From UHGV virus genome UHGV-1567883: DNA of 16,300 bases. One strand, given 5' to 3'. The DNA comes from a virus. The translations under genes were made by a program, and so were the position numbers. The notes below the pieces were generated by a model, which saw only the letters and a list, made by a program, of their open reading frames with translations, ran no database searches and was not told the origin of the DNA. Below are positions 1 through 16,300 of this stretch, piece by piece. Every line of letters begins with the position of its first letter. Position 1 is the stretch's first letter.

Positions 1-70
1 ACACCCGTTGTTAACTTATCCATGGATTTCATAACCCCACCTCGCAGATGCGGGTGCTGTGTAATGGAAA

Positions 71-93
71 TAAAAAGGCCACCTGACGTGGCC
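71..93 (-). terminator. Intrinsic terminator downstream of the DPPY methyltransferase gene
   Basis: Hairpin GGCCAC-ctgac-GTGGCC (77-93) followed on the minus strand by a U-run (plus-strand A-run 71-76), directly after the stop codon at 100-102. Confidence 0.6.
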
Positions 94-99
94 ACCAGA

Positions 100-1152: not shown

Positions 1153-1302
1153 GGATCAGTAAGCGTAACTCTGGTAGGCTCACTCTGCTTTTGCGCTAAA
1201 GCAGTGGGCCGTGGTTCGCTTGTGACCAGTAAGCATGAGCGAATGGCTGGCAGGTGCTACCAACACCCACCAGCCGCCCATTTTCACAGCAGGAAACCGC
1301 CA

Positions 1303-1521
1303 TTACTGGCAGCGTCTGAATTTATTCCCGTTATCCTTCGCCAGACCCGCCAGAACTAACTGAGTCAGTATTAACTGGCACCGGGCTTCGCTTACTCCGG
1401 TAGTTCTCGTCATCATGCGTGGCGTTACCCACTTGTCAGCAGGTAAGAAATGAAGGACTGCGGCGGCGGTTTCTGTCATATCTTGCTGTTTTAGCATGTC
1501 TTTTTCCCTTCTGGTTAACAT
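1303..1521 (-). CDS. Small hypothetical phage protein, possibly winged-helix; real start may be the internal ATG at 1497
   Basis: 72 aa ORF; the internal Met9 is preceded by AAGGGA at SD distance. First gene after the candidate late promoter/terminator. No recognisable catalytic motif. Confidence 0.4.
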   Translation of the reverse strand: MLTRREKDMLKQQDMTETAAAVLHFLPADKWVTPRMMTRTTGVSEARCQLILTQLVLAGLAKDNGNKFRRCQ

Positions 1522-1619
1522 GACATACCAATAACTCTTGTCTAAAAAGCCAGCAAGATAAAAGGTCAGTATTCACGACCACCAGCGTGTTTACTGTACT
1601 GCACCAAGTTTACAGGTAC

Positions 1620-1640
1620 AAAAAAACCGCTCAGCGGCGG
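1620..1640 (-). terminator. Candidate minus-strand intrinsic terminator (possible tR'-like)
   Basis: Minus strand reads CCGC-tga-GCGG followed by seven U (plus-strand A-run 1620-1626). The stem is short, so this is marginal. Confidence 0.3.
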
Positions 1641-1674
1641 GTTTAAGTTGTGTGGCGAAGTAACCACTCTTAAC

Positions 1675-1702
1675 AGCATATTTGATTTTTTACGATTGTA
1701 AA
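1675..1702 (-). promoter_or_regulatory. Candidate sigma70 promoter on the minus strand (possible late PR'-like)
   Basis: Minus strand TTTACA (1702..1697), 16-nt spacer, TATGCT (1680..1675); would start a roughly 50-nt transcript ending at the 1620-1640 hairpin. Confidence 0.25.
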
Positions 1703-1767
1703 CGGTTGATTATTCATCTCCAATAAAAATAATTGTGTAGGTATGCCCTTAACAATGGATAAGAAAC

Positions 1768-2214
1768 ATGAATAAAATGACTGTACTATTACTTAGCGCA
1801 ACTATCATTTCAGGTTGTACTTCTTCCGTACCATTGATAAAAAAAACTCAATCAGGAAAACCTGAGGGGGTTTATCAAAATACGACAAAAGATAAAGTCA
1901 AAGATGCCCTTGTGAATTACTGCAATAGTAGAGGGTTGATAATTTACAACGCTGATAACAGCAGTGTTATATGTGGTAAAGAACTGGAAGGCGGGTCTGC
2001 TGTTTTTGGACAAATGTTAATCGGCAATGCCTATTCAACAACCCCGGTATCAAAAGTCAGATTTACTATCGCTCAAGTTAATAACGATACAAAAGTGTGG
2101 GCCGATATGTGGATGGAAACTCAAATGGCAATGGGGCAAGTACAACAAATGGCTATAACAGACAACGCAAGCAAAAACACTATCCAACAACGTCTTGATG
2201 AATTAAAACCTTAA
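1768..2214 (+). CDS. Lipoprotein (signal peptide plus lipobox), AT-rich moron
   Basis: 148 aa; N-terminal MNKMTVLLLSATIISGC with lipobox ISGC; the gene is visibly AT-rich relative to its neighbours and convergent with Q. Confidence 0.7.
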   Translation: MNKMTVLLLSATIISGCTSSVPLIKKTQSGKPEGVYQNTTKDKVKDALVNYCNSRGLIIYNADNSSVICGKELEGGSAVFGQMLIGNAYSTTPVSKVRFTIAQVNNDTKVWADMWMETQMAMGQVQQMAITDNASKNTIQQRLDELKP

Positions 2215-2234
2215 GTAAATTAATTAAATAAAAT

Positions 2235-2256
2235 GGGGAGAATAAATCGACTCCCC
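2235..2256. terminator. Hairpin terminator between the convergent Q and lipoprotein genes
   Basis: GGGGAG-aataaatcga-CTCCCC with an A/T-rich tract on the 2221-2234 side (U-run for the minus-strand transcript). Confidence 0.5.
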
Positions 2257-2298
2257 ACACATTAAACTGATTCAATTACCCCCTCAATAAGAGGTCTT

Positions 2299-2664
2299 CT
2301 AACGATCCATCTCTAGCTCAATTTCTAACATCATTAACATGCCATCAACTACACCTTCAGCCTTTTGCAATAAACGCCCAACCCAGCAATCAGAACGCCC
2401 ATGTTTACGGGCAAGCGCCATAAACGTCATACCACCTACATAATAATCCACTAATAAATCGTGCAAATCGCTGTTGTTCTTTTTCAGGCGAGCCATGCAC
2501 CCACAAATGATCATCGCATCATCGTCACAACATTGCGGGCGGGATTTTACTTTTGAAGGGATTAGTCCTTTAAATCCTGCAGCAATAGACGACCAGGTGA
2601 CATCCTCGTGATTATTTGCCACCCATGCCCCCCAACGTTCAAGAACCATTTGAATATCACGCAT
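2299..2664 (-). CDS. Antitermination protein Q (phage 82 / QuuD-like family)
   Basis: Protein [14 protein letters not shown]...[19 protein letters not shown] matches my recollection of E. coli DLP12 QuuD. The ORF track starts at a TTG at 2679; the ATG at 2664 has GGAGAA 5-6 nt upstream. Confidence 0.75.
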
Positions 2665-2681
2665 CAACGTTCTCCACAAAA

Positions 2682-3677
2682 TCAGGCCAGCACGCCAATT
2701 GCCAGCGCACGATCGATAAAACGAAATATCAGCTCCAGCTGGGAGCCATACTTCTCTTCAAATGCCACGGTATCCGCATGCAGCTCGTCGTGATGCTTTC
2801 TGCACAAAGGCAACACAAAGAGGTCATGCGCTTTTGTACCCATTCCCCCCTGACCGTGGCCTATCAGGTGGTGGGGATCATCAGCAGGCTTTCCACAACA
2901 TGCACACGGCTGTGTCTTAACCCAGCGTGTGTACTTTTCATTAACCCAGCGGCGACGTTTTGGGCGTAACATAAAAGACTCCGGCGACTCCGGATCCACT
3001 TTCAGCGCCAGCACCTTTTTCGCCTTATCCTGGATGATGCTGGTGGCAGGAACCGAAGGCACAAGGTCACTTTCCCGGGTGACAGACGGCACAACAGGCT
3101 TCGGTAATCTCAGTGCCTTACGGGCTGCACTTTCCGGTAAGGCATCCGCCAAGTCATTACGAATCAGCCACCAGCACAGTTCCGGCATTGTCACAACGTG
3201 ACTGTCATCAAAACCGAGATCCCGACGCACAACAGACAACACCCAGCGGGCACAGTTATCCGTTGCCATTGATTCCAGCCGTTCCGTGAACTGATCGCGC
3301 AGCTGGTTATCGCAGTGCCAGCACAGACGGATTGCGCCCGGCGCGTGTCGCATTGTTGTCATGTTCTCGCTGTGCCAGTCGGAATGAGGCCACTGGCAGC
3401 CTTTTTCACGAAGTAACCAGCTTTCAAGACATTCCACGCCACCAGCACGACGGATCACTTCCTCATTGCGGAACACGGCCCGAACGGCAGGATCATCCGC
3501 CAGCGGTTGTGATGCCGCCGGAACGGCACCACTGGCGAAAGATGAATAACGTTCCGGCTCAGGCTCCAGCAGGACACGCCCCTGCATAAACAGGGGCATC
3601 AGCTCTGAACCTGGCCTGAACAATACGATCCCCATACGCGGGGCAATTTCAGGGGTCAGTAGTGCTCTCACGGTCAC
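2682..3677 (-). CDS. DUF968-type phage protein with C-terminal HNH-like Cys/His motif
   Basis: 331 aa; C-terminal [28 protein letters not shown]...[11 protein letters not shown] (CxxC ... HH ... C..HH). Position equivalent to nin-region nuclease genes. Confidence 0.65.
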
Positions 3678-3678
3678 C

Positions 3679-4488
3679 TCAATGAACGGTATCGAGCAGC
3701 TTTAACAGCTCAGGGAATCGGGATTCGAAGAAATGCGGCTGCGTCTCGCGCGGATTTGCGGGACTGGTGATGTTCTTGCCGAACATGCAACCTTTCGCTG
3801 TCAGCGACCAGAATTTTTTGATGTTGTTAATCGCGGTACGGCTGTATCGTTCGCGTTGTTCAACGATCCCCAGCTTCGCCATCTGGTGATATGCCTGATT
3901 AGCCGTAAGGCGGATACCATACTGTTTCAGCAGTGCACTCAGCGACAGCGTAGGACGACTTGAGCCATCAGGCGCGTCAGCAGGAGCATCAATGGCATAG
4001 CGCGGTGCCAGATTCGGTAAGCCAACAGCCTCCTGGAGTTTCTGACAGGCACCAAGCACTGAAGAGTTAGACAGGTTTAATTCCCGGCGCATAAAGTCCA
4101 GCAGAATCACACCAGCCTGCATCTTGTCAGCAGCCTGTCCGGATAATTTTTCCGGTGCGCTGGTTACCATGTCGAAAGTACGGATCACCTTCAGATGGAA
4201 TGACGGGCTGATCCACATTGCATAGGCATACACCAGTTCCTTGCAGACATACGTTCCCCGTTCATTTCCCCCATGAATCACACTCACCGGGTCAACACCC
4301 AAATTCTGGGTGTTGGTCAATTCATGAACAAGCTCAACAGTTTGTTGGCTGGAAAGAAACTTTCCTGGCTCCTTGGTTCTGGCATTTGCACCAGATGCTA
4401 CTGCTGCGCGATGCAGATCGTTCAGGCTGTAACGCCCATAAGCATCACGACGAACTTCAATACCATCAATGACCATCAGATTATTCAT
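3679..4488 (-). CDS. KilA-N domain protein (antirepressor-like N-terminal DNA-binding domain)
   Basis: 269 aa; N-terminal IDGIEVRRDAYGRYSLNDLHRAA ... KELVYAYAMWISPSFHLKVIR is characteristic of KilA-N. The C-terminal half is unassigned. Confidence 0.7.
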   Translation of the reverse strand: MNNLMVIDGIEVRRDAYGRYSLNDLHRAAVASGANARTKEPGKFLSSQQTVELVHELTNTQNLGVDPVSVIHGGNERGTYVCKELVYAYAMWISPSFHLKVIRTFDMVTSAPEKLSGQAADKMQAGVILLDFMRRELNLSNSSVLGACQKLQEAVGLPNLAPRYAIDAPADAPDGSSRPTLSLSALLKQYGIRLTANQAYHQMAKLGIVEQRERYSRTAINNIKKFWSLTAKGCMFGKNITSPANPRETQPHFFESRFPELLKLLDTVH

Positions 4489-4507
4489 ACTTCGTTTCTC
4501 CTCTTAA

Positions 4508-4897
4508 TCAGGCGGCTGCACCCGCCGGTTTCTCATACTTACTGATAGTGATCTCGACCTTCCCTTTCGGGATAACCGGTCCCCACTCCACCAGCATTCT
4601 TTTCACCTGTCTGTCGTCTTCCCACACACCCGCGTGGGTCAGGGCGTCAAACAGCGCCTTGTTATAGTTGTCCAGATCGCGGATCCGGTTATCCGGAGGA
4701 AACAACACGATCTCCACTGAAGCAGGTGCCGACGTTGGTTTCGGCAGACGACGTAACTGCTCAACTATTGCTGCGCACGCCGCGCTCTGAAATTTTCGCC
4801 CCGCCTCGCTTATCAGGCTCTTACCAGCAAATGCCCCTTTGTTGGGGTGTCGCCAGTACGTGTTCACACTGGGCGGGAAAGGCAGGATCAACTTCAT
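4508..4897 (-). CDS. rusA: Holliday-junction resolvase RusA
   Basis: 129 aa; LPFPPSVNTYWRH ... RDLDNYNKALFDALT ... DD.QV matches RusA signature residues. Start overlaps the upstream stop (ATGA). Confidence 0.85.
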   Translation of the reverse strand: MKLILPFPPSVNTYWRHPNKGAFAGKSLISEAGRKFQSAACAAIVEQLRRLPKPTSAPASVEIVLFPPDNRIRDLDNYNKALFDALTHAGVWEDDRQVKRMLVEWGPVIPKGKVEITISKYEKPAGAAA

Positions 4898-5220
4898 ACT
4901 TTCAGGCCCCTCTCATGTAACCAGTGGGCTGCACGCAGCCTGGCGTTCTCCTCACCGGCAAGCAGTGCGCGGATGATACCGACCGCTTCGCTGTCGTCGT
5001 CCTTCACTGCGGTATGAAGCGTTATCCCCCGGGCCACGCCACGCTTTATCGTGATGACGCCTTTTTTCTCCAGTGCGCGAAGATGCTCCACCGCTGCATT
5101 CACCGAACGGTATCCCAGCATGGTTGCCACCTCCTGATTGGTTGGCGGAAAGCCACGCTCTTGCTGGTAAGAAATCAGCATATCCAGCACCTGCTGCTGG
5201 CATTGAGTTAACGTCGTCAT
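4894..5220 (-). CDS. LexA N-terminal DNA-binding-domain homologue lacking the S24 peptidase domain
   Basis: 108 aa; LTQCQQQVLDMLISYQQERGFPPTNQEVATMLGYRSVNAAVEHLRALEKKGVITIKRGVARGITL aligns motif-for-motif with the LexA winged-helix domain. No Ser/Lys catalytic domain. Translationally coupled (ATGA) to dam upstream and rusA downstream. Confidence 0.7.
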   Translation of the reverse strand: MTTLTQCQQQVLDMLISYQQERGFPPTNQEVATMLGYRSVNAAVEHLRALEKKGVITIKRGVARGITLHTAVKDDDSEAVGIIRALLAGEENARLRAAHWLHERGLKV

Positions 5221-5870
5221 GCCGCCATCTCCCTGACAAGTTTTTCTGCCTGCTGGCGAACCTGCGCCAGAAACGCCTCACCACATGCCTCAAGTTCATC
5301 GCGCCCGATGTAGCTGATTGCCGGTCCCTTCCAGGTCTTGTCGAAAACAGCAATAGCACCAGCGAAGAAAGCGCCTGTCGGCACCTGCTTCTCATCCTTC
5401 GGGATAAACCAGGCAGGCAGTTCAAAACCAATACGCCCGCGAATAAAAGCAATATGGTCCGCATCTTCCGGCCACCACACTTCGCTGGTGGCAGCTTTGA
5501 TCAGGAAAACATAGCGCCCGCCCTTATCACGCATGGCACTGGCATGTTTCATGATGTAACGCATGCCGGTGATGTATTGCCCCTCATGCTGACTGGCGCG
5601 GCTGTATGGGGGATTACCAAAGGCAGCACCTTTAAGCTCCGCAAGACGTTCTGACCAGTCATGCGCCAGCGCGTTGTCTTCCGCCGTGTAATACGCGGCA
5701 CATTTGGCGTTATCACCGTCAGTGAACAGATCCAGAACAAACGGACCAAACAAGGTGTTAATTCCCCAGAAAATGTTGTCCGGCGTGCGCCACTGATCGC
5801 CCACTTCCTTCAGTTCATGGGCTGGTTTGTTCCGCAGTTCTACCAGCGCCTGGCAATATTTATTACTCAT
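5217..5870 (-). CDS. Phage-type DNA N6-adenine methyltransferase (small Dam-like family)
   Basis: 217 aa; FGNPPY catalytic motif; size and layout of the phage N-6-adenine methyltransferase family (compare CPS-53 yfdM). Confidence 0.8.
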   Translation of the reverse strand: MSNKYCQALVELRNKPAHELKEVGDQWRTPDNIFWGINTLFGPFVLDLFTDGDNAKCAAYYTAEDNALAHDWSERLAELKGAAFGNPPYSRASQHEGQYITGMRYIMKHASAMRDKGGRYVFLIKAATSEVWWPEDADHIAFIRGRIGFELPAWFIPKDEKQVPTGAFFAGAIAVFDKTWKGPAISYIGRDELEACGEAFLAQVRQQAEKLVREMAA

Positions 5871-5962
5871 TAAGCCCCCACGTAAAAAGCATCCGCAATG
5901 TCTCCGGAAGTACAGCCCGGATGGGCTTCAATGAATTTCTGAACGTCATTTAACAGACTCAT
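5870..5962 (-). CDS. Unannotated 30-codon ORF translationally coupled between the replication gene and dam
   Basis: ATG at 5962..5960 lies 2 nt after the O-like stop with GGGGG upstream; its TAA overlaps the dam ATG by 1 nt. Peptide MSLLNDVQKFIEAHPGCTSGDIADAFYVGA. Confidence 0.3.
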   Translation of the reverse strand: MSLLNDVQKFIEAHPGCTSGDIADAFYVGA

Positions 5963-5964
5963 GA

Positions 5965-6957
5965 TCACCCCCTGAATCCTGCCGGGATCTGGCTGTAGTC
6001 CACGTTGTCGTAACTGGCTTTGAAGTACGGGTCTTCACGTTTTTCTGTGTGCGTGCTGACGGACGGCGATAAGCGCAGGGAAAGCTCATCCCATTTTTCC
6101 CGCAACTTCGACGGGCTGAGCACGTTACGGCACCAGAACGGATCGCGGCTGACGCGGCTGTACATCTCGCAGATTTGTTTGTGAGTACGACCATCCTGCA
6201 CACACATCAGGCGAATTTCGTTTGCCCATGCTGTCCAGTTCGGTTCTTTGGGACGAACCACCTCGCCGTCACATTCGGCGGCCTGCTCGTACAGGGCGAT
6301 GATTTTTTTCCAGAGCCACTGTGCGCAGGTCAAATCATCCTGCGTTCCCCACTGGCGCTTTTTAGGGCTGAATACAACCGCATCAGGATGGCGAGTTAAA
6401 AACTCCTGTTCAGCCGTTTGCGTGTCCGGTTGCGAAGCGTCCGGACGAGAAGAGGTTTTATTCTCTGTAGTAATCTCTGTTGTATTCTCTGTAAGATCAT
6501 TGGGCCATTTTGACCCGATGACAGCGTGTCGTTTTGAACCAATGGATCGTGTCATTTTGCGCCCATCCATCAGGTCACTTTGACCCGATGGAGAAGTGCA
6601 TTTTGACCTGATGGATTCGTTCACTTTGACCTCTTCTAAAAGCTCACTTTCATAGTTGATCGTGTAGAAGTTGGTCATGTCACGCTTCGATTTATTGAGT
6701 TGCTCGCGACGCAAAACCCCAAGTGATTTCAGGCTTGCAAATGTGCGTTTCAGAGTGGACTCTGACCAGAACGGAAACTGCTCCAGCCACTGTTCTGTCG
6801 TGTTATAAACCCAGCGAATTCCGCCATGCTCAGTGCCTGAATTCGTTTCATTCAGCCAGTAATGAAGCTGCTGCAACACAATTGCCTCATTCAGACCAAT
6901 ACGGCATGCAAGATCACGATTTATCACAATGGGCTGGGATGTCATTAACAGGCTCAT
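5965..6957 (-). CDS. Replication initiator (lambda O-like role) with DnaT-like C-terminal domain; origin iterons inside the coding sequence
   Basis: 330 aa; N-terminal wHTH-like region; internal iterons encode repeated IGSK; the C-terminus ...YSQIPAGFRG resembles the E. coli DnaT C-terminus (...SQIPPGFRG, from recollection). SD GAGG 7 nt upstream of the ATG. Confidence 0.65.
   Translation of the reverse strand: MSLLMTSQPIVINRDLACRIGLNEAIVLQQLHYWLNETNSGTEHGGIRWVYNTTEQWLEQFPFWSESTLKRTFASLKSLGVLRREQLNKSKRDMTNFYTINYESELLEEVKVNESIRSKCTSPSGQSDLMDGRKMTRSIGSKRHAVIGSKWPNDLTENTTEITTENKTSSRPDASQPDTQTAEQEFLTRHPDAVVFSPKKRQWGTQDDLTCAQWLWKKIIALYEQAAECDGEVVRPKEPNWTAWANEIRLMCVQDGRTHKQICEMYSRVSRDPFWCRNVLSPSKLREKWDELSLRLSPSVSTHTEKREDPYFKASYDNVDYSQIPAGFRG
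6457..6494. repeat. Three tandem 12-bp AT-rich repeats (TTCTCTGTA-type) beside the iterons; candidate DNA unwinding element
   Basis: TTCTCTGTA at 6461, ATCTCTGTT at 6473, TTCTCTGTA at 6485 (12-bp period), inside the O-like gene. Confidence 0.55.
6506..6660. repeat. Iteron array (candidate phage origin of replication): 6-7 direct repeats, 23-24 bp period
   Basis: CATTTTGACCCGATGA 6506, CGTTTTGAACCAATGGA 6530, CATTTTGCGCCCATCCA 6553, CACTTTGACCCGATGGA 6576, CATTTTGACCTGATGGA 6599, CACTTTGACCTC 6622, degenerate CACTTTCAT 6645. Confidence 0.7.
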
Positions 6958-7126
6958 GACCGACCTCTATTTCCCTGAATTTACGACGAAACTGTTCGAG
7001 CGGACTGAAGCATTCATGTTCATAGCCTTCACGGAGGTAGATAACCCGTTGTGTTTCCGGCTCCCAACGAATGACTCTGACGGGCACTCCGTAGTGATCT
7101 TTGAACCAGCGGTTAACTTGTCGCAA
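6914..7126 (-). CDS. Small phage protein, DUF4222-like; TTG start with strong SD
   Basis: 70 aa; AAGGAG 8 nt upstream of the TTG; ...[30 protein letters not shown]... resembles DUF4222 proteins (recollection). Overlaps the O start by 44 nt and the 6967..7305 ORF in another frame. Confidence 0.45.
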
Positions 7127-7305
7127 AGGACTGTCTCCTTCTGCCGGTTGAAATCACCCACAGCCCACTCTGCAAAGCTGTGGGTTACAATTTCCCTGTC
7201 ACCTGGTACATTCACTGCATAGCAATACTCCACCTTCGCTTTTCCACCCGGTACAGGAAGCGCAATCAGTTGCGAGCGACGGTAGTGTGTTGTTAAACTG
7301 TTCAT
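6967..7305 (-). CDS. Hypothetical protein; conflicts with the overlapping 70-aa ORF
   Basis: 112 aa; ATG overlaps the upstream stop (ATGA) and its stop sits just before the O-gene SD, which is good operon geometry, but 160 nt overlap the 6914..7126 ORF. Confidence 0.4.
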
Positions 7306-7886
7306 GCGTTAGTTTCTCCACAACCAGAAGCAATCGACGCCACGACGCCCGGAGCTGCACACTCGCGGGCGTTACTCTTTTCCGGCGCACAAAAAACACG
7401 AAATAACAGTGTTAAATGCTCCTGCCACTTCGCCATTACTTGGTAGCTGTTCTCTTCGATTTGCTCACGCTCAGCCTGGTCAATAACTCCATCAGCAGTT
7501 GCCTTGCGTAAGTACTGGGAATGCTTGCCAATCCATTCTATTGACTCCATCAGCCGCTGATTAATGTCACCATTGTCAATGTCATCAATGACCACCAGCG
7601 GCACAAACACCCCATTACTACGACGGGCTATTGCATCTGTTACATGCCTGGTACCACTGGCATCCTGTAAAACCATGGCCCACTCAAGTGGAAAAATTTG
7701 ATCCCCACCGCTACGCAGTCTGTTATGCAATTGATCTTTTGCTGGGGTGATATCATCAGATTTATACAAACCAAGAATTTCTGCTGCTTCCTCATAGCCA
7801 TGAGGTAAATCAGCAATCGTTCTTCGTATTGCTGCCACCAGCCATGCTGGTTGTTTATCAACTTTCCATTCAGGTTCTTTACCCAC
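7302..7886 (-). CDS. Regulatory protein at the cII position (CII/CP76-like or YdaT-like; family uncertain)
   Basis: 194 aa; GTG start with GAGGAA 8 nt upstream; immediately downstream of the cro-like gene. Confidence 0.45.
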
Positions 7887-7913
7887 GGTTAATTCCTCAT
7901 TTCTGTGGTGTTT

Positions 7914-8111
7914 TTATGCCGCAGCACTGTTAGTCTTTTGATATAAAGACACGTCAACTTTCAGTTTCCCGTTAGTAATTTTTTCTAACTGGTACGCTCG
8001 GCCTTCAGGAATAATCTCAGGCCACTCTGAAACAGACGGATGCTTAATACCTAGGGCTTCGGCGGTTTTACAAACTCCGCCGAAATAATTAATCACGTCG
8101 GATTTCCGCAT
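7914..8111 (-). CDS. Cro-like repressor (YdaS/Cro family)
   Basis: 65 aa, divergent from the cI-like gene; GGGAGA SD upstream of the ATG; first gene of the minus-strand operon from the PR-like promoter. Confidence 0.7.
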   Translation of the reverse strand: MRKSDVINYFGGVCKTAEALGIKHPSVSEWPEIIPEGRAYQLEKITNGKLKVDVSLYQKTNSAAA

Positions 8112-8142
8112 TTCTGTCTCCCGTTAAATTACGTCAAGCAGG

Positions 8143-8208
8143 AATGTAGGATATCCAACATGCCAATGTCAAGAATCCTACATTGGCATGTGGTAGGATT
8201 GCCTACAT
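8143..8208. promoter_or_regulatory. OR-like region: three 18-bp operator repeats plus PR-like promoter
   Basis: ATGTAGGATATCCAACAT 8144-8161; degenerate site 8166-8183 with perfect right half ATCCTACAT; TGGTAGGATTGCCTACAT 8191-8208. Minus-strand TTGACA (8172..8167), 18-nt spacer, TACATT (8148..8143) reading toward cro. Confidence 0.6.
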
Positions 8209-8860
8209 GATGAACATGAGTGATCGTATTCGCCAAAGGCGAAAAGAACTGAACCTGACACAACAAGCACTGGCTGATTTGACTGGTGTGAACCGTGTCA
8301 CGGTTACTGGATGGGAAAAGGACGACTACCAACCAAATGGAGCCAACCTTCAAGCCCTAGCCAACGCACTTAAATGCGATCCTCTGTGGCTTGTTAGCGG
8401 AAAAGGCTCGCCTGAACCAAAGATAAATCTAAAACCTGAAATATTCGCAGTTAAAAAAGTCCCCCTCATCTCGTGGGTTCAGGCGGGTTCATGGACAATG
8501 ACGGAGCCTGGTGTCAGGAAAGAAGATGCTGAAGAGTGGGTTTATACTACCGCCCTTGTATCAGAAATGGCATTTGCACTACGGGTCCGTGGTGATTCAA
8601 TGACCAATCCCCTCGGCTCACCATCGATACCAGAAGGTTCTATCGTTATCGTAGAGCCAGATATTATTGATACAGAGTGTATTAACGGAAAAATCGTTGT
8701 TGCCCATATCAATGGTGGGCAAGAAGCGACACTCAAAAAATTTGTTGAGGACTGGCCGAACAGGTATCTCGTCCCACTAAATCCTAACTATAAAACTATT
8801 GAATGCGGTGAGAACTGCAGAATAGTTGGTCTTGTCAAACAAGTAATAATGGATTTTTGA
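8207..8860 (+). CDS. CI-like prophage repressor (HTH_XRE N-terminus, S24 LexA-like autopeptidase C-terminus)
   Basis: HTH LNLTQQALADLTGVNRVTVTGWE; Ala-Gly cleavage site in VQAGSW; catalytic Ser in GDSM and Lys in ATLKK. The track start at 8183 is probably too long; ATGs at 8207/8210/8216 follow AGGA. Confidence 0.85.
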   Translation: MMNMSDRIRQRRKELNLTQQALADLTGVNRVTVTGWEKDDYQPNGANLQALANALKCDPLWLVSGKGSPEPKINLKPEIFAVKKVPLISWVQAGSWTMTEPGVRKEDAEEWVYTTALVSEMAFALRVRGDSMTNPLGSPSIPEGSIVIVEPDIIDTECINGKIVVAHINGGQEATLKKFVEDWPNRYLVPLNPNYKTIECGENCRIVGLVKQVIMDF

Positions 8861-8884
8861 CACATCTTCCTTACTATCGCAAAA

Positions 8885-8907
8885 CCGGGGTATCCCCGGT
8901 TTTTTTA
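8885..8907 (+). terminator. Intrinsic terminator after the cI-like gene
   Basis: CCGGGG-tat-CCCCGG followed by an 8-T run. Confidence 0.75.
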
Positions 8908-8922
8908 TGAGCCTATCTTTTT

Positions 8923-8976
8923 ATGTAGGATAACCAACATAAACTCTTGACACCTACATGTTGGATATCCTACATT
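8923..8976. promoter_or_regulatory. OL-like region: two operator repeats plus PL-like promoter
   Basis: ATGTAGGATAACCAACAT 8923-8940 and ATGTTGGATATCCTACAT 8958-8975 (exact reverse complement of the OR site at 8144-8161). Plus-strand TTGACA 8947-8952, 18-nt spacer, TACATT 8971-8976. Confidence 0.6.
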
Positions 8977-9134
8977 TGTTTTTAGAGTTGTGGTGAATGC
9001 GCAGGCTGATGCGCGAAAGACATTGCAGCTATTGCGGAAAAGAGCTGTTCGGCGGGGCAATTAAACGCCCGTGAGAGTCTGAAATAACCGCAAGCCGGAG
9101 ATCAGCACCGGTCACCACAACAGCCACTGCTTTG

Positions 9135-9269
9135 GCGGTACCAGTTTGTACACTTGCTTCCGGCTGGTACCGCTCTTTTTACAAAACAGAGAAGAGCATC
9201 ACCGGACGACGGGCTCATAACCCAATCCATCCGGGCGGCTGCCACCGCAGGTGTTCTTCTCTGTTTTGT
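9135..9269 (+). promoter_or_regulatory. Structured leader of the early-left operon: terminator-like hairpin plus a long-range 15-bp inverted repeat
   Basis: GCGGTACCAG (9135-9144) / CTGGTACCGC (9164-9173) followed by a T-run 9176-9180; ACAAAACAGAGAAGA (9181-9195) pairs with TCTTCTCTGTTTTGT (9255-9269). Confidence 0.35.
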
Positions 9270-9317
9270 GGAGAAACTAACCGACCTTGCAGGGTCGATA
9301 TGATGAGGAGCAGCAAA

Positions 9318-9680
9318 ATGGCTAGCGAACGCAGTACTGATGTGCAGGCATTTATCGGGGAGCTGGACGGCGGCGTATTTGAAACCAAAATCGGCGCAGT
9401 TCTCAGTGAAGTCGCTTCCGGTGTGATGAACACGAAAACCAAAGGTAAGGTCTCACTCAATCTGGAAATCGAACCGTTTGATGAGAACCGAGTGAAAATC
9501 AAACACAAACTCTCATATGTTCGCCCGACTAACCGCGGGAAAATTTCCGAAGAAGACACCACCGAAACGCCGATGTATGTCAATCGCGGTGGTCGCCTGA
9601 CTATTCTGCAGGAAGACCAGGGACAATTACTGACTCTTGCCGGTGAACCTGACGGAAAACTCCGCGCAGCAGGTCGTTAA
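9318..9680 (+). CDS. YfdP-like hypothetical phage protein
   Basis: The 120-aa version starts at the ATG at 9318 preceded by GAGGAG; the longer track ORF from 9132 lacks an SD. Gene order and sizes match CPS-53 yfdP/Q/R/S (recollection). Confidence 0.55.
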   Translation: MASERSTDVQAFIGELDGGVFETKIGAVLSEVASGVMNTKTKGKVSLNLEIEPFDENRVKIKHKLSYVRPTNRGKISEEDTTETPMYVNRGGRLTILQEDQGQLLTLAGEPDGKLRAAGR

Positions 9681-9745
9681 TATCGTTTTTAATAAACTGA
9701 TTATTTATCTCATCACTGAATATCTTTATATAGTGAGGACTTATT

Positions 9746-10570
9746 ATGTCTCAGAACTTAGACGCAACCGCAATTAATCAAATCCATGCCCTTATTTCTG
9801 CTCAGGGTGTTAATGAAATTATCAGTAAGATTGGTGCCGATGCTGTGGCATTGCCTGAGAACTTCCGCATTCATGATCTGGAAAAATTTAATTTAAATCG
9901 CTTCCGTTTCCGTGGTGCGCTTTCCACTGCCAGCATCGATGACTTTACCCGTTATTCTAAAGATCTTGCAAATGAAGGCACCCGCTGCTTTATTGATGCC
10001 GATAATATGCGTGCCGTCAGTGTGCTTAACCTGGGTACTATTGATGAACCAGGTCACGCAGATAACACCGCCACTCTCAAACTGAAAAAGACAGCACCGT
10101 TCTCTGCTCTGTTGTCTGTTAACGGCGAGCGTAACTCCCAGAAGTCACTGGCAGAATGGATTGAAGACTGGGCCGACTACCTTGTAGGCTTTGATGCTAA
10201 TGGTGACGCTATTCAGGCAACAAAAGCGGCTGCGGCTGTCCGTAAAATCACGATTGAAGCAAACCAGACCGCTGATTTTGAAGATAATGACTTCAGCGGA
10301 AAACGCTCCCTGATGGAGTCTGTCGAAGCGAAGACCAAAGATATTATGCCAGTGGCATTTGAATTTAAATGCGTTCCGTTTGAAGGTCTGAAAGAACGTC
10401 CGTTTAAATTACGCCTCAGCATTATCACTGGCGATCGTCCTGTACTGGTTCTGCGCATTATTCAGTTGGAAGCAGTCCAGGAAGAAATGGCTAACGAATT
10501 TCGTGATCTGCTTGTTGAGAAATTCAAAGACAGCAAAGTAGAAACCTTTATTGGTACTTTCACCGCCTGA
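9746..10570 (+). CDS. YfdQ-like phage protein (DUF2303-type)
   Basis: 274 aa, the same length as E. coli YfdQ; position between the yfdP-like and yfdR-like genes. Family assignment from recollection. Confidence 0.55.
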
Positions 10571-10697
10571 TTTCATTGCTGCAAATGCCCCTGCGGGGGC
10601 ATTTATGGAAACGTAATTGACTCAACAATCGCCTGATGGCGAGGGCTTCCTTTTACCCGAATTCAGCGCGGTGCAGCGCATATACGTGGAGAACAAA

Positions 10698-11234
10698 ATG
10701 TCATTTATTAAAACTTTTTCCGGGAAGCATTTTTACTATGACAAGATAAATAAAGACGACATCGTGATTAACGATATCGCGGTTTCCCTTTCAAATATCT
10801 GCCGCTTTGCCGGTCATCTTTCTCACTTCTACAGCGTCGCCCAACATGCGGTGCTTTGCAGCCAGCTGGTGCCGCAGGAATTTGCTTTTGAAGCGTTAAT
10901 GCATGATGCAACAGAAGCGTATTGCCAGGACATCCCCGCACCACTGAAACGCCTTCTTCCTGACTATAAACGGATGGAAGAAAAAATAGACGCAGTAATC
11001 CGTGAGAAATACGAGTTGCCCCCGGTTATGAGTACGCCTGTGAAATATGCCGATCTAATCATGCTGGCAACCGAACGCCGTGATCTCGGGCTTGATGATG
11101 GCTCTTTCTGGCCTGTACTGGAAGGCATCCCGGCAACAGAGATGTTCAACGTGATTCCACTGGCACCGGGCCACGCCTACGGGATGTTTATGGAACGTTT
11201 TAACGAGTTATCGGAGTTACGCAAATGCGCATGA
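10698..11234 (+). CDS. yfdR: HD-domain phosphohydrolase, YfdR-like 5'-deoxynucleotidase
   Basis: 178 aa from the ATG at 10698 (GTGGAGA SD 5 nt upstream); HD motif H...HD in AQHAVLCSQL ... EALMHDATEAY. Confidence 0.7.
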   Translation: MSFIKTFSGKHFYYDKINKDDIVINDIAVSLSNICRFAGHLSHFYSVAQHAVLCSQLVPQEFAFEALMHDATEAYCQDIPAPLKRLLPDYKRMEEKIDAVIREKYELPPVMSTPVKYADLIMLATERRDLGLDDGSFWPVLEGIPATEMFNVIPLAPGHAYGMFMERFNELSELRKCA

Positions 11235-11587
11235 ATGTTTTCGAAATGGAAGGGTTTCTTCGCGGGAAATGTGTACCGCGAGATCTGAAAGTGAACGAAA
11301 CAAATGCTGAGTACCTGGTACGTAAATTCGACGCGCTTGAAGCTAAATGTGCGGCACTGGAAAACAAAATAATACCAGTGTCAGCTGAACTGCCACCAGC
11401 AAATGAAAGTGTTCTGTTATTTGATGCTAACGGAGAAGGCTGGCTGATTGGCTGGCGTTCTCTCTGGTACACCTGGGAACAAAAAGAAACCGGAGAATGG
11501 CAGTGGACATTTCAGGTCGGGGACCTTGAAAACGTCAATATCACTCACTGGGCAGTAATGCCGAAAGCACCAGAGACTAAGAAATGA
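11225..11587 (+). CDS. DUF551-type phage protein (YfdS-like)
   Basis: 120 aa; Trp-rich C-terminus ...WQWTFQVGDLENVNITHWAVMPKAPE typical of DUF551; GGAG 8 nt upstream of the ATG. Confidence 0.55.
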   Translation: MRMNVFEMEGFLRGKCVPRDLKVNETNAEYLVRKFDALEAKCAALENKIIPVSAELPPANESVLLFDANGEGWLIGWRSLWYTWEQKETGEWQWTFQVGDLENVNITHWAVMPKAPETKK

Positions 11588-11799
11588 GCGTGATAAAAAC
11601 TCATACAGGAATTGTTATCACCCGAGACGGTGAAAAGCGGATGAAATTACATTCCACTGAAACGTCCTGGGTTGCCGGACGTTGTGAATCCTACGACAAA
11701 AAGACTGGTTACCGTTGGGGTGCACCAAACATGCGTCGCCGTCTGCTACTGGACAGCATCAGGCCAATAAAACAGGTAGCAACCAGGGAACAAAATTAA
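11584..11799 (+). CDS. Small hypothetical phage protein
   Basis: 71 aa; start overlaps the upstream stop (ATGA). Confidence 0.45.
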   Translation: MSVIKTHTGIVITRDGEKRMKLHSTETSWVAGRCESYDKKTGYRWGAPNMRRRLLLDSIRPIKQVATREQN

Positions 11800-11858
11800 T
11801 TATCAGGACTGGAATTTGATATTACTGCCCGTGTGCAGCGGGCTAAGTGGAGAAACAT

Positions 11859-12065
11859 ATGCTGAACCTCGATTGCGTTCCAATCTCAACTTATTGCAAA
11901 GAAACTGGCGAAACTCCTGAAGCAATAAACAAACGTGTACAGCGCGGTGTTTGGCGTGAAGGTGTTCAGGTTTTAAAGGTTGAAGGCGTTAAGGAGAGGT
12001 GGATTGATCTTAGTGAGGTTGCAAAATGGGCCAGACAAAACTGCTCAAACTACCGCGCGGCGTAA
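11859..12065 (+). CDS. xis: Excisionase (Xis-like winged helix)
   Basis: 68 aa from the ATG at 11859 (GTGGAGA SD); directly upstream of and overlapping int by 40 nt, as in lambda xis-int. Confidence 0.6.
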   Translation: MLNLDCVPISTYCKETGETPEAINKRVQRGVWREGVQVLKVEGVKERWIDLSEVAKWARQNCSNYRAA

Positions 12066-13192
12066 CAATCAGGAAACACCGCCAGGGCGAAACGATCAAT
12101 ATAACTTTCACCTACAAAGGAGTTAAATGTCGTGAGCCTCTTTCCAATCTGGAAGTAACACCAAAGAACATTAAATACGCCGAGCGCACACTCGGCGAAA
12201 TTCATAATAAGATCGAAAGGGGAACATTCATTTATGCGGAATATTTTCCCCGTTCTGCTCGTTTGAAAATTTTTGGTAATGCTGCTGCAGGCAAAACGGT
12301 AAAAATGTACCTGGACGAATACCTTGAAATCTGCGAAACGAGAAAACTTTCACCCTCTACGATTGGTGGTTATAAAAAATGCCGTAGTGCGTTAGCCTCA
12401 CTCCACATTTGCCCTGCAAGTGAATTAACACCAGCAATCCTGAAAGCGTGGATTCAAAGCCAGAAAACGACCTTAAAAACAATTCGCAACCAGTTATCTT
12501 TCCTGCGGTCAGCACTTGATGAAGCCGTAACCGATGGGGTACTTCAAATTAACCCCGTATCGTTGGTAACTGCTTCGCGCTACCAAAGTGATAAGTCAGA
12601 AGCAGAAAGCAGCTACGTGGTTGATCCGCTATCACCAGCAGAAGTTGATGCATTACTAACAGCAGCCGGAAACAAACAATGGGAGAATCTGTTCCGGTTC
12701 GCTATACATACAGGCCTGCGTAGTTCTGAATTATGTGCCCTTCGATGGCGTGATATCGACTTTGTTGGAAAAACTGCCCATGTCCAGAGCGCAAGTGTTG
12801 TCGGTGTTATCAAAGGAACAAAGACAAAAGCCGGTACTCGTAAAGTTGAACTGACAGAAGATGCAATGTTGGCGCTGATAAATCAGAAGCCATTTACATT
12901 CATGAAGGATGCTACTGTCTTTGAAGATCCAAAGACCAATAAGCCCTGGGCAAGTGCTGATGCAATCAGGAAAAAAGCATGGGTGCCAACATTGCGAAAA
13001 GCAGGTATTCGTTACAGAAATCCATATCAAACCAGGCATACATTCGCCACCCGCCATATCAGCCGGGGAGCAAACCTGTTTTGGCTTGCAGCTCAAATGG
13101 GGCATAAAGGGCCGGAGATGCTTTTCAGGCACTATGGCTCATATCTGAAGGAATATGATGGACAAACAAGCTTGAAGAAGATAACAATATAA
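12026..13192 (+). CDS. int: Tyrosine integrase (lambda Int family with N-terminal arm-binding domain)
   Basis: 388 aa; catalytic R in TGLRSSEL, H/R in QTRHTFATRH, Tyr in LFRHYGSY; GAGG SD 7 nt upstream. Confidence 0.9.
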   Translation: MGQTKLLKLPRGVTIRKHRQGETINITFTYKGVKCREPLSNLEVTPKNIKYAERTLGEIHNKIERGTFIYAEYFPRSARLKIFGNAAAGKTVKMYLDEYLEICETRKLSPSTIGGYKKCRSALASLHICPASELTPAILKAWIQSQKTTLKTIRNQLSFLRSALDEAVTDGVLQINPVSLVTASRYQSDKSEAESSYVVDPLSPAEVDALLTAAGNKQWENLFRFAIHTGLRSSELCALRWRDIDFVGKTAHVQSASVVGVIKGTKTKAGTRKVELTEDAMLALINQKPFTFMKDATVFEDPKTNKPWASADAIRKKAWVPTLRKAGIRYRNPYQTRHTFATRHISRGANLFWLAAQMGHKGPEMLFRHYGSYLKEYDGQTSLKKITI

Positions 13193-13250
13193 TCCAAGCA
13201 TGAAACTATTGGCCACAATTTGTGGCCATTTTACGGAGCAAGATAGAAAC

Positions 13251-14984
13251 ATGGCAAATCAAATTACCAAACTAAAAAATATAAATGTTGTGAAGTTTCG
13301 CGGACTGAAAAATATAAACATCGAGTTTGGTTCTCGCCTAACTGTTATTTGTGGTAAAAATGGCACATCTAAATCCACAATTCTTGGCATTATCGCCCAA
13401 ATATTTAGCTTTACAAAGGACTTTACCAAAAACCCTGAGACTGATTTAACACAATATAAAACATTAACAAATGGCAGCTTCAAGTCAGCTTTCAGCGAAC
13501 ATTTTAGGCTTTCAGAACAATTTGATGTTCCTGGTTCAATGGACGTCAAAATTAGTGTCTATGATGGTGCATCGAACAAACATCTTGAAAAACTAACATT
13601 AGGTTTATACAGCTACAGTGACAGAGATAAATCTAGGCCTGTAGTCAGGGGAAATGATTCAATACCGGAAAAAAACCAAAGTAGAAACGTTACTCATCCT
13701 GTTATTTTTTTAAGCTTAGCACGACTTCTTCCTATTACATTAAGGACTGATTACTCAACACGGGATGTTCAGTACATCAATGAAAATTCTGATGAAATCA
13801 GAATGATGAGTAACCAACTCTTACTAAAAAACAATGGAAGCTCAGTAACAGCAACAAAAGGTACTATCGATTCAATGGTTGTCCATGGTGACAATTATGA
13901 TCACCAATCAGTATCTGTTGGTGAAGATAATGTTGGACAATTAATCCAGGCAATTTTTTCATTTAAAAGATTGAAGGAAACTTATTCTGATTATCATGGC
14001 GGAATATTGTTAATTGATGAAGCCGATGCAGGTCTTTTCCCTGCGGCACAGTTAGAGCTAATTAATATTCTAACTAAAGCAGCAAAACAATACGATCTGC
14101 AAATAATCATGACCTCGCACTCTCCATTAATAATAGAGGATATCTATAATCGTTCAAAACAAGATAGTGATAGCTTTAAAACAATATATCTTACAGACAC
14201 ATATGGAGATATTAAAACAAAGAATAATCTTTCATGGACAGATATCCACGCTGATTTACATGTTGAAACTGTAAAAATTAATGATGACATTTGTCTTCCA
14301 AAGGCAAATGTATATTTTGAAGACAAAGAAGGTTTCGACTTTTTCAAACAATTGATAACAGATCGAAAAATAAATAAAATATTAAATCCATTAGGAAATA
14401 TAAATATTAGCTGCTCTGCCATGCTTGACTTAATGGCAAGAAAAATACCAGAATTTACAGCTAAAAGCTTGATCGTCTTAGACGGTGATGTTGTTCACGA
14501 CAACAGTGCTAATGCAAAAAAAGCCAAAAAAGAAAAAAACTTATGTTTGCTTCCAAGCACCTTACCTCCAGACCAAATGATTTTTGAGTTTTTATATAAT
14601 TTACCACCTGATGATGCATATTGGGAAAATAAAAATAAATTTACAAAAGCTGTTTTTATGAAAACAGCTAAAGACATAATTGCAACGCTAAAGATTGGTA
14701 ACGCTCCGATTGATTTAAAAATCCTTATAGATAATTATAAAAAAGTTAACAAAAACCATGGAGGGAGAGTTAGAAAACTGTTTAAAGATTTTGCACATAC
14801 GACTCAATTTCAGGCCCAAGTCAAAGGAAGAGTTAAAGATAACCCATATCGATATTGGGTCGAGAAAAATCCTGTTCAATCGGATAGCTTCAAGAATGAA
14901 CTAATAAAGAGTCTTAAAGTTATTATGATAAGTGGACATGGTGTCGATTCTGCTACCATCTCATCATATCTGTCAGATAACTAA
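13251..14984 (+). CDS. OLD-family-like nuclease candidate: N-terminal ABC-type ATPase plus C-terminal TOPRIM-like domain
   Basis: Walker A CGKNGTSKST (nt 13350-13379), Walker B/D-loop ILLIDEAD (14014-14028), H-loop TSHSP (14112-14126), TOPRIM-like EGFD (14328-14339) and LIVLDGD (DxD at 14481-14489). The gene is visibly AT-rich. Alternative start at 13200. Confidence 0.7.
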   Translation: MANQITKLKNINVVKFRGLKNINIEFGSRLTVICGKNGTSKSTILGIIAQIFSFTKDFTKNPETDLTQYKTLTNGSFKSAFSEHFRLSEQFDVPGSMDVKISVYDGASNKHLEKLTLGLYSYSDRDKSRPVVRGNDSIPEKNQSRNVTHPVIFLSLARLLPITLRTDYSTRDVQYINENSDEIRMMSNQLLLKNNGSSVTATKGTIDSMVVHGDNYDHQSVSVGEDNVGQLIQAIFSFKRLKETYSDYHGGILLIDEADAGLFPAAQLELINILTKAAKQYDLQIIMTSHSPLIIEDIYNRSKQDSDSFKTIYLTDTYGDIKTKNNLSWTDIHADLHVETVKINDDICLPKANVYFEDKEGFDFFKQLITDRKINKILNPLGNINISCSAMLDLMARKIPEFTAKSLIVLDGDVVHDNSANAKKAKKEKNLCLLPSTLPPDQMIFEFLYNLPPDDAYWENKNKFTKAVFMKTAKDIIATLKIGNAPIDLKILIDNYKKVNKNHGGRVRKLFKDFAHTTQFQAQVKGRVKDNPYRYWVEKNPVQSDSFKNELIKSLKVIMISGHGVDSATISSYLSDN

Positions 14985-14996
14985 TTGATTAAAAAA

Positions 14997-15030
14997 GGGT
15001 TTTATGTGATGGCCATAAAGCCCTTTTTTT
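14997..15030 (+). terminator. Strong intrinsic terminator between the OLD-like gene and the Dam-family MTase gene
   Basis: 10-bp stem GGGTTTTATG / CATAAAGCCC (one G-U pair), 7-nt loop, then a 7-T run. Confidence 0.75.
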
Positions 15031-15064
15031 GATATACTTTAGATCTGACATTTAGAGGTATCAT
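15029..15064 (+). promoter_or_regulatory. Candidate extended -10 promoter and SD of the Dam-family MTase gene, overlapping a GATC
   Basis: TGaTATACT extended -10 (15030-15038); AGATCT with GATC at 15042-15045 near the predicted start; SD AGAGG 15054-15058; ATG 15065. Confidence 0.35.
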
Positions 15065-15964
15065 ATGCGTTTTAACACCCCACTTCGCTATCCTGGCGGT
15101 AAAGGCAAGCTTGCAAATTTCATGCTTCGGATTATTGAAGAAAATAATCTTTCGCCTATACATTATGCCGAACCATATGCTGGGGGTGCTGGTTTAGCAT
15201 TGAAACTGTTACATCTAAATGCAGCTGAAAAAATCATCCTTAATGATATTAATATTTCTGTTTATGCTTTTTGGCACAGTGTATTAAATCATGCAGATCA
15301 ATTATGTTCTTTAATTGAAAGAACAGAAGTTACAATGGATGAATGGTTTAGGCAGAAAGATATAATTAATAATCCTAAAGACCATGATCTTTTAACAATT
15401 GGTTTCTCAACCTTTTTTCTCAATAGAACAAATCGTTCTGGAATATTAAAAGGTGGAGTAATTGGCGGTAAAAATCAAGAAGGGAAATGGAAGCTTGACG
15501 CTCGCTATAATAAGAGTGATTTGATTTCTCGAATCCATAAAATATCAGAAAATCGTCACAGAATAGATTTATATAACATGGATGCAATTGATTTCATTAA
15601 AAAAATAGTTACTCAATTGCCACAAAACTCATTAACATATTTGGATCCACCTTATTACATAAAAGGTAAAGGTTTATATATCAACCATTATGATCATGAT
15701 GATCATGTTAGGGTTGCAAAAGTCGTACAGAATAATATTAAAACACCTTGGATTGTTTCTTACGATAACACTCCTGAGATCCAAGCTATGTATAAGACAT
15801 CATCATTAGTATATGGAATAAACTACAGTGCTCAAGATCGGTACAAAGGATCTGAGGTAATGTTCTTCAGTGAACGATTGAAAATCTTTAAAACAGATGA
15901 TCCAACTAAGGTAAAAGCGCCTGTATTTAAAAGAGGATGTGTTGACGACCACATCCAGACATAA
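15065..15964 (+). CDS. Dam-family (D12 class) DNA N6-adenine methyltransferase
   Basis: 299 aa; aligns by motif to E. coli Dam: PGGK near the N-terminus, SAM motif EPYAGGAG, NRTNRSG region, catalytic DPPY. AT-rich. Confidence 0.85.
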   Translation: MRFNTPLRYPGGKGKLANFMLRIIEENNLSPIHYAEPYAGGAGLALKLLHLNAAEKIILNDINISVYAFWHSVLNHADQLCSLIERTEVTMDEWFRQKDIINNPKDHDLLTIGFSTFFLNRTNRSGILKGGVIGGKNQEGKWKLDARYNKSDLISRIHKISENRHRIDLYNMDAIDFIKKIVTQLPQNSLTYLDPPYYIKGKGLYINHYDHDDHVRVAKVVQNNIKTPWIVSYDNTPEIQAMYKTSSLVYGINYSAQDRYKGSEVMFFSERLKIFKTDDPTKVKAPVFKRGCVDDHIQT

Positions 15965-16036
15965 AAGGAGCCGCAAAAGATCCGCAGAATAAAATGGTTA
16001 GTATTAATCGTTTTATTTCAGCTAATTATAAAAATA

Positions 16037-16075
16037 CGGACTCGGGTTCAACTCCCGCCAGCCAATCATGATTGG
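16037..16075 (+). other. tmRNA (ssrA) 3'-end-like fragment plus 14-bp perfect palindrome: candidate att core
   Basis: CGGACTCGGGTTCAACTCCCGCCAGC (16037-16062) matches my recollection of the E. coli ssrA 3' T-arm/acceptor region except one base and lacks the terminal TCCACCA; followed by CCAATCATGATTGG (16062-16075). Confidence 0.4.
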
Positions 16076-16194
16076 ACGGTGTAAGGACTACACCAACAAA
16101 AACAGGAAGTTATAAGTCTCAGCAGGACACCGACCAGACGGTGAGGAGACAAAAAAGGATACGCAACGGAGTCGCGACTCCCTATGACATTAAA

Positions 16195-16216
16195 GCCCGC
16201 TGATGCGGGCTTTTTT
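16195..16216 (+). terminator. Intrinsic terminator
   Basis: GCCCGC-tgat-GCGGGC followed by a 6-T run. Confidence 0.6.
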
Positions 16217-16300
16217 ATTGGTCCTGACCCGCCCTGAATAGAATTGTAAGCGACTCGTCAGAACCGTATTGATATTTACTGAGAGCTCAGATCAACTTTC

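Follow-up and report, generated by a model that had tools for sequence, protein, structure and literature searches.

A displaced ssrA 3' end beside an ATPase/methyltransferase pair: the very probable attR of a phiNP-like prophage in Escherichia coli and its five-nucleotide deletion

Integration genes, cargo and the ssrA-like stretch

The window, that is, the whole stretch of 16,300 nucleotides analysed here, carries the integration genes of a phage, two further genes and a stretch resembling the 3' end of ssrA, all read on the plus strand. The integrase gene (int, 12026-13192) codes for a tyrosine integrase of the ssrA-specific type with an arm-binding N-terminal domain, as seen from its matches to the Pfam families Arm-DNA-bind_2, Phage_int_SAM_5 and Phage_integrase. 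The protein is 93% identical to the Int of phiNP and 87% identical to that of phage LLS, while the identical protein, WP_001596854.1, is annotated in strains MS21324, JJ1886 and Ec-042. The start of int is overlapped by a putative excisionase gene (xis, 72 aa, 11847-12065). No Pfam match was found for this open reading frame, which owes its name solely to annotation and to its position, the same as that of xis in phiNP and of the putative excisionase gene in LLS.

Downstream of int lie a gene for an ATPase of 594 aa (13200-14984, AAA_15/AAA_21 by Pfam) and a gene for a D12-class N6-adenine DNA methyltransferase, or MTase (15065-15964, Pfam MethyltransfD12), which are 87% identical to the ATPase of phiNP and 89% identical to an unannotated open reading frame of the same phage, respectively. 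When compared with PADLOC, the ATPase is PtuA/AriA/GajA-like, its 25 best matches being of this type and PD-Lambda-5_A not being among those 25, and the MTase matches PD-Lambda-5_B over its full length (E=2e-124). PD-lambda-5 has been described as a compacted prophage system uniting RM and Abi (PMC9519451). Judging from these matches, the pair (13200-15964) apparently resembles a compact defence module, with an MTase close to PD-lambda-5 B. A C-terminal portion of the ATPase, of about 250 aa, carries no domain assignment. In phiNP-like prophages, the slot between int and the P arm (13193-15964 in the window) is a variable cargo hotspot: in UTI89, ATCC 11775 and ZJ3920 it holds a three-gene block on the reverse strand with a STAS-like protein (about 3980-5850 of loci L010, L012 and L013), in 0H18 a DUF6977 and DarT-family pair (2553-3869 of L024), and in phage LLS a single unrelated gene (2190-3005 of L004).

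The MTase gene is followed by an AT-rich segment (15965-16036, plus strand) which has no counterpart at ssrA or at empty sites and is taken as the phage-derived P arm of attR. Just past the stop codon of the MTase gene, it contains two GAKCCGC repeats (15968-15974 and 15979-15985), at distances of -77 and -66 from the core. The P arms of UTI89, phiNP and the locus L016, otherwise divergent, carry the motif at about -66 as well, and that of JJ1886 has it at -77/-66 too. Moreover, an inverted pair of the same motif occurs at +129/+134 in all phage P' arms examined, which in the attL of MS21324 corresponds to about 18943-18956 of locus L002. By their position and conservation, these copies qualify as candidate arm-type sites, at which the Arm-DNA-bind_2 domain of Int may bind. 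At 16168-16181 of the window, the B2 host flank has a variant palindrome, GGAGTCGCGACTCC.

The ssrA-like stretch itself (16037-16062, plus strand) reads CGGACTCGGGTTCAACTCCCGCCAGC and is 25/26 identical to the 3' sequence of E. coli ssrA, CGGACGCGGGTTCAACTCCCGCCAGC, the sole mismatch being a phage-specific T at 16042 where ssrA has G; the reference 3' end (...CGGACGCGGGTTCAACTCCCGCCAGCTCCACCA) was taken from strain MS21324. Allowing up to three mismatches, this is the single match in the whole window, and none of 200 shuffles gave one. ARAGORN reported no tmRNA or tRNA gene in the window, and Rfam gave no match at gathering scores. In a permissive Rfam scan, positions 348-362 alone of the tmRNA model could be aligned, to the T-arm at 16043-16057 and with 9 bits, whereas an ssrA gene would have the complete tRNA-like domain (both acceptor strands, T-arm and CCA end), a tag reading frame and pseudoknots. 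Other permissive matches in 15800-16300 (Leu leader, tymovirus tRNA-like and others) were discarded, all being below gathering scores and traceable to either the terminator hairpin or the T-arm.

Homology with the ssrA locus covers about 190 nt rather than 26, since it continues for about 165 nt more, past a 14-bp palindrome, to a terminator at 16192-16216. In fact, barring T16042 and a deletion of 5 nt at 16061-16063, the segment 16037-16245 is the sequence that follows ssrA in strains with an empty site (97.2% identity over 214 nt). Alignment to these sites and a terminator scan characterise 16063-16245 (plus strand) as a displaced host ssrA trailer with the native ssrA terminator (hairpin 16192-16213 and T-run), followed by host DNA towards glaH. 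The preliminary description had reported a 26-nt match to the 3' region of ssrA without the rest of tmRNA. The alignment and the ARAGORN and Rfam searches bear this out as far as the gene is concerned, but the extent given was too short for the locus and the copy lacks 5 nt.

Prophage ends and the site of strand exchange

Nucleotides 1-16245 of the window are 99.9% identical to four complete E. coli chromosomes, MS21324 among them. No second att repeat was found inside the window, which holds one copy only, and the left end of the prophage, lying outside it, was located in these near-identical complete genomes and not in the source genome. In MS21324, the gene order is smpB, ssrA, a lambda-like prophage of about 44 kb (tail genes, head genes, terminase, lysis genes, Q, replication genes, cI/cro, yfdPQR, xis and int), AAA ATPase, DNA adenine methylase, the ssrA-like fragment and glaH. 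The intact ssrA (18470-18832 of L002, plus strand) lies about 44 kb upstream of the fragment and in the same orientation. It provides, outside the window, the matching direct repeat expected at the far end of the prophage. The tail genes come directly after this intact gene in MS21324 and in three other complete genomes, and the fragment adjoins glaH.

Empty sites were found in the ST131 isolate 86 and in strain 95-3322, where smpB-ssrA is followed, after about 680 nt and with no prophage, by glaH, and the ST131 strain JJ1886 carries the same prophage at the ssrA site. When attB, attL and attR were aligned, the sequence to the left of 16037 proved to be phage-only and 16063-16245 to be the flank of the empty sites; the right side of attL is a diverged copy of the trailer with its own terminator, 88-91% identical to the host flank. 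The element thus shows an intact and co-oriented target gene at its other end, an uninterrupted site in related genomes and a tyrosine integrase within it; a regenerated target gene together with a displaced fragment are the end marks of tDNA-integrated islands (PMC4383910). We conclude that 16037-16245 is very probably the attR of a phiNP-like lambdoid prophage integrated in the 3' end of ssrA, in keeping with the earlier suggestion of an att repeat left by an ssrA-integrating element. The further suggestion, that the ATPase and the MTase are phage cargo and not host DNA, is upheld as well. The pair falls inside the prophage, because empty-site strains of the order smpB-ssrA-glaH have no such genes between ssrA and glaH, and it is phage cargo, because phiNP, a viable phage with a homologous block, has the same order of xis, int, ATPase, methylase and ssrA fragment. 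The prophage boundary is fixed by this result, and the pair is therefore mobile with the phage.

The closest known system is that of phiNP (OR565852; Magaziner et al. 2019), which produces viable particles and can establish lysogeny in E. coli K-12. Its attP/attB has been experimentally defined as a 25-bp ssrA 3' end, GGTTCAACTCCCGCCAGCTCCACCA, with excision between the two repeats also demonstrated (PMC6456863). The window carries a closely related integrase and the same order of modules, xis-int-AAA ATPase-D12 MTase-ssrA 3' fragment, at the identities given above for Int, ATPase and MTase. Across its core, phiNP likewise carries an ssrA trailer and terminator copy of its own, with GAGCCGC at -66 and the inverted pair at +129/+134. 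The differences are that phiNP is a myovirus of Citrobacter rodentium, whereas the structural genes of the window prophage are lambda-like and siphoviral, that its repeat has the full 25 bp ending in CCA, the window copy being 5 bases short and carrying T16042, and that its P' arm lacks the palindrome found on the right side of the window. A second parallel is phage LLS (PQ299149), a free Escherichia phage with the 87% identical Int, in whose annotation a tmRNA pseudogene and an attP occupy the same position. Its order, xis-int-cargo-tmRNA pseudogene-palindrome-trailer copy-terminator, is that of the window, from which it differs in its one unrelated cargo gene and in an intact CTCCACCA end.

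In a wider context, displaced tDNA fragments of the Islander type (PMC4383910; bioRxiv 10.1101/2020.11.02.365908) have in common with the window an integrase inside the element, a regenerated target, a co-oriented 3' fragment and a likely crossover in a symmetric T-arm. Unlike in that type, the integrase of the window stands at the fragment end, with 2.8 kb of cargo between integrase and core, and the homology between both ends of the prophage continues for about 165 nt past the gene, owing to the phage's mimic of the ssrA trailer and terminator. The deleted attR allele aside, the fragment is an ordinary att site of known type. What is new here is the homology of about 190 nt to the ssrA locus and the attR allele with 5 nt deleted.

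The proposed recombination would start from a phage attP made up of a pseudo-copy of the ssrA 3' end and a copy of the ssrA trailer and terminator. The tyrosine integrase would have recombined this attP with ssrA, the crossover lying inside the last 27-28 nt of ssrA and most likely in the T-loop (16047-16053), between the symmetric halves of the T-stem. The ssrA gene at the far (left) end would have been completed by phage sequence, and the host 3' end of ssrA with its terminator would have been pushed about 44 kb downstream, now standing beside the phage P arm (15965-16036). Everything between both ends, including xis, int and the ATPase/MTase pair, belongs to the prophage. Finally, the displaced host ssrA 3' end has lost 5 nt in this lineage.

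The position of the strand exchange can be narrowed by means of polymorphisms. The attR of JJ1886 combines the phage T, at the position of 16042, with the ST131 host-type CCACCAAATAATG (flank AAATAATG), and its attL combines the host G with the phage-type CCACC-AATCATG; therefore, strand exchange took place within CGGGTTCAACTCCCGCCAGCTCCACCAA, which belongs to ssrA and lies left of the palindrome. The T-arm (16043-16057, plus strand) consists of CGGG (16043-16046), TTCAACT (16047-16053) and CCCG (16054-16057), a putative core-type inverted repeat with a 7-nt overlap, and falls within the experimentally defined 25-bp attP of phiNP. A T-loop with flanking symmetry is a known integration sublocation, favoured by integrase subfamilies (bioRxiv 10.1101/2020.11.02.365908). 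The core and crossover probably correspond to this T-arm, as suggested by its symmetry, the JJ1886 interval and the sublocation preference, from which we infer the cleavage positions.

The five-nucleotide deletion of attR

In the alignments to ssrA, the deletion (CTCCA or TCCAC, at 16061-16063) takes away most of the 3' strand of the acceptor together with the CCA end. The attR of the window reads ...CCCGCCAG|CCAATCATG..., and ssrA and the intact copies of attR read ...CCCGCCAGCTCCACCAATCATG.... The full 25-bp repeat defined in phiNP is absent from the window, where GGTTCAACTCCCGCCAG is followed by CCA with 5 nt missing, so that the copy keeps 20 of the 25 bases of the phiNP core; the full repeat is present in the same prophage of JJ1886, Ec-042 and 20AR1039.

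Of 5,426 complete E. coli genomes, 149 contain a 41-mer across the deletion, in one copy each, and among the matches listed it never falls under an annotated ssrA. Most of these 149 genomes carry the UTI89/ATCC 11775 prophage, which is myoviral and has only parts of the early region in common with the window prophage. An origin of the latter by module swap in a resident prophage of the UTI89 type was considered and rejected on this account. Between MS21324 and UTI89, the host alleles are identical on both sides, with 100% identity from GGACT rightwards. The deleted allele was also found beside the relative with DarT cargo in 0H18, beside a P2-like prophage with a different integrase and in five IMG/VR contigs; a search of the phage database for the deletion gave none. 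The carriers, in addition to the window, are the loci L010, L012-L014, L016-L020, L024 and L025. Among them, the identical deletion is seen on at least three right-flank haplotypes, including a host flank of the ypjA type, and beside phage left arms of at least five kinds, with two integrase families. In every locus examined the deletion is at attR, and the attL, attB and attP copies are all intact.

Two other views of this distribution were abandoned. The deletion is not an obligatory companion of the flank with the perfect palindrome, since 20AR1039 has a P arm of the window type, an intact CTCCA and the palindrome. Neither is it recurrent across species, as a scan of one genome per species gave three unrelated matches (Streptomyces and alphaproteobacteria) attributable to chance only. 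Most simply, the 5 nt would have been lost from the host side of the crossover, a change that is neutral for as long as a prophage provides ssrA with its 3' end, and the deleted allele would have persisted through prophage replacement. Inheritance on the host side accounts for the varied left arms, but not for the several flank haplotypes.

As regards the consequences, the product of a precise excision was modelled by joining the 5' part of ssrA to the right side of the window. ARAGORN sees no tmRNA gene in this product, whereas the wild-type attB is recognised, and precise excision is predicted probably to leave a defective ssrA. A comparable situation has been described for CP4So of Shewanella oneidensis, where attR and attL differ by one nucleotide and excision leaves ssrA 1 nt short, which abolishes tmRNA function (Zeng et al. 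2016, PMC5148205). Both cases involve a small deletion between attR and attL in the 3' tRNA-like domain of ssrA, with the functional 3' end coming from the prophage. Nevertheless, CP4So is a cryptic P4-like element with a 1-nt difference of experimentally established effect, whereas here 5 nt are missing beside full-size lambdoid, myoviral and P2-like prophages and the consequence is a prediction.

It is conceivable, albeit doubtful, that attR is by now a dead scar, a view compatible with its identity as attR: the deletion would have destroyed recognition by Int and locked the prophage in place, with no precise excision. Because the deletion leaves 20 of the 25 core bases, this attR may not be a working substrate. 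The five bases taken out belong to the core defined experimentally in phiNP, and the allele is fixed in 149 genomes, as would be the case for a stably retained prophage end. On the other hand, the symmetric T-arm core (16043-16057) is intact. Moreover, at least five phage left arms occur in combination with the deleted right side, the homology starting at about GGAC, and this is most simply understood if core exchange still occurs on the deleted site. A literature search on excision of the ssrA prophage of UTI89 and ST131 yielded nothing specific.

A tentative proposal, towards which we are ourselves rather sceptical, goes further. With the host ssrA 3' end broken, tmRNA function would depend on whichever ssrA-targeting prophage occupies the site, a ratchet of prophage addiction in pathogenic E. 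coli of group B2, for example UTI89 and ATCC 11775. If so, excision would yield a defective ssrA, and cured cells would be selected against or rescued by re-lysogenisation, which would explain the occurrence of one deleted flank beside siphoviral, myoviral and P2-like prophages that are unrelated and differ in cargo. Should the deleted attR still excise, tmRNA would be inactivated and the fitness of the host tied to prophage occupancy, with a bearing on the stability and turnover of prophages in extraintestinal pathogenic E. coli.

The palindrome and the flanks of the site

The perfect 14-bp palindrome CCAATCATGATTGG (16062-16075) shares C16062 with the ssrA-like stretch and, as the alignment to empty sites indicates, belongs to the host-derived part of attR, being the sequence natively found right behind ssrA. 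In the empty site of 95-3322, it follows the intact ssrA and overlaps its CCA end, and it is also found in the attL of MS21324, JJ1886 and UTI89 and in the attP of LLS. It is imperfect in the attB of ST131 and absent from the attP/P' arm of phiNP, from the attB of K-12 and from the Ec-042 site, where the sequence after the phage P arm and core, CTCCACCAAATATTGATG..., belongs to a second integrase island. As a single occurrence CCAATCATGATTGG is statistically unremarkable. The preliminary description had proposed the palindrome as a core-type binding site of the integrase, and this proposal is not supported. A site of that kind would be present in both attP and attB and would flank the strand exchange, but the palindrome stands on the host side, the same Int has recombined with sites devoid of it, and strand exchange took place to the left of it. 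Since in ST131 the palindrome is imperfect and other functional partner sites do without it, it is not a required Int site, and by these comparisons it is to be regarded as part of the ssrA trailer and of its phage mimic.

That the palindrome is nonetheless the integrase core and crossover, the ssrA-like stretch and the 5-nt gap being phage-borne and to the left of it, seems very improbable. From MS21324 alone, a crossover there would be possible, since 27 nt (CCAATCATGATTGGACGGTGTAAGGAC) are the same in attL and attR; likewise, conservation of the palindrome extends to the P' arms of several phages and to the attP of LLS, and the deleted allele has been seen linked to phage left arms only, i.e. 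in attR. Nevertheless, the same Int, WP_001596854.1, left JJ1886 with host-type sequence at the palindrome in attR and phage-type sequence in attL, which places the crossover to the left of it. At the Ec-042 junction, homology stops at CCACCAAAT, the CCA end, and phiNP attP and K-12 attB have no palindrome. From phiNP in K-12 it is already implied that Int can do without attB sequence past the CCA end. Moreover, unrelated prophages in hosts with the same flank have the 5-nt deletion in common, the P2-like one with its different integrase being among them, and this fits an allele of the host side better. Finally, three perfect 14-nt palindromes are observed in the window, against about one expected by chance.

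A phage-borne deletion with the crossover to its right had also been considered because in the IMG/VR contigs L017, L018 and L020 phage-type sequence seemed to come after the deleted site, which made them look attP-like. Their right arms, however, are host ypjA plus flank, a second host haplotype, and the contigs are therefore attR junctions; a phage-borne deletion with a crossover in the palindrome block also conflicts with the JJ1886 and Ec-042 junctions of the identical Int.

The preliminary description had further named, as the outcome that would speak against a boundary at the fragment, a junction next to int near 13200, and the comparisons show otherwise: that the prophage ends there, leaving the ATPase/MTase pair and the ssrA fragment as the remnant of a separate older island or as host DNA, is extremely improbable, for although the cargo slot is mosaic, with entirely different genes between int and fragment in relatives and hence an exchangeable block, this block is absent from empty-site strains, the unit int-ATPase-MTase-P arm-core is contiguous in phiNP (viable and able to lysogenise K-12) and in the three host contexts of JJ1886, Ec-042 and MS21324, neither a second recombinase nor flanking repeats are found around the block, and the candidate arm-type motifs lie downstream of the MTase gene and not beside int.

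With attR extending from the core to the host flank, as preferred here, some further features of the surroundings can be described. At 16246 the sequence leaves all attB and attR flanks, starting with GTAAGCG (GTAAGCGACTCG...), and 16246-16300 is the end of an IS66-family (ISCro1-like) element, 93% identical to ISCro1-family copies, situated in the host flank and outside the att site. This junction was found in none of the complete E. coli genomes searched, the closest of which read CATCCAATTACAG... towards glaH. About 160 nt of ssrA trailer and terminator (16063-16225 of the window against 18833-18990 of L002) are conserved at about 88-91% between the host flanks, of glaH and ypjA type, and the phage P' arms, namely those of phiNP, LLS and the JJ1886-, MS21324- and UTI89-type phages; some alleles, as in L018 and 0H18, look mosaic. 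This pattern suggests exchange or co-evolution between the trailer copies of phage and host. In Ec-042-T20-MAC, the same prophage is directly followed by the second integrase island, with recombinase and ParB-like genes (6221-7450 of L011), a tandem arrangement at ssrA.

Elsewhere in the window, three copies of an 18-nt near-palindrome, ATGTAGGATATCCAACAT, occur at 8143-8174, 8923-8940 and 8945-8976, where they flank the divergent cro-like (7914-8111, minus strand) and cI/LexA-family (8183-8860, plus strand) genes. These copies are probably the operators of the immunity region.
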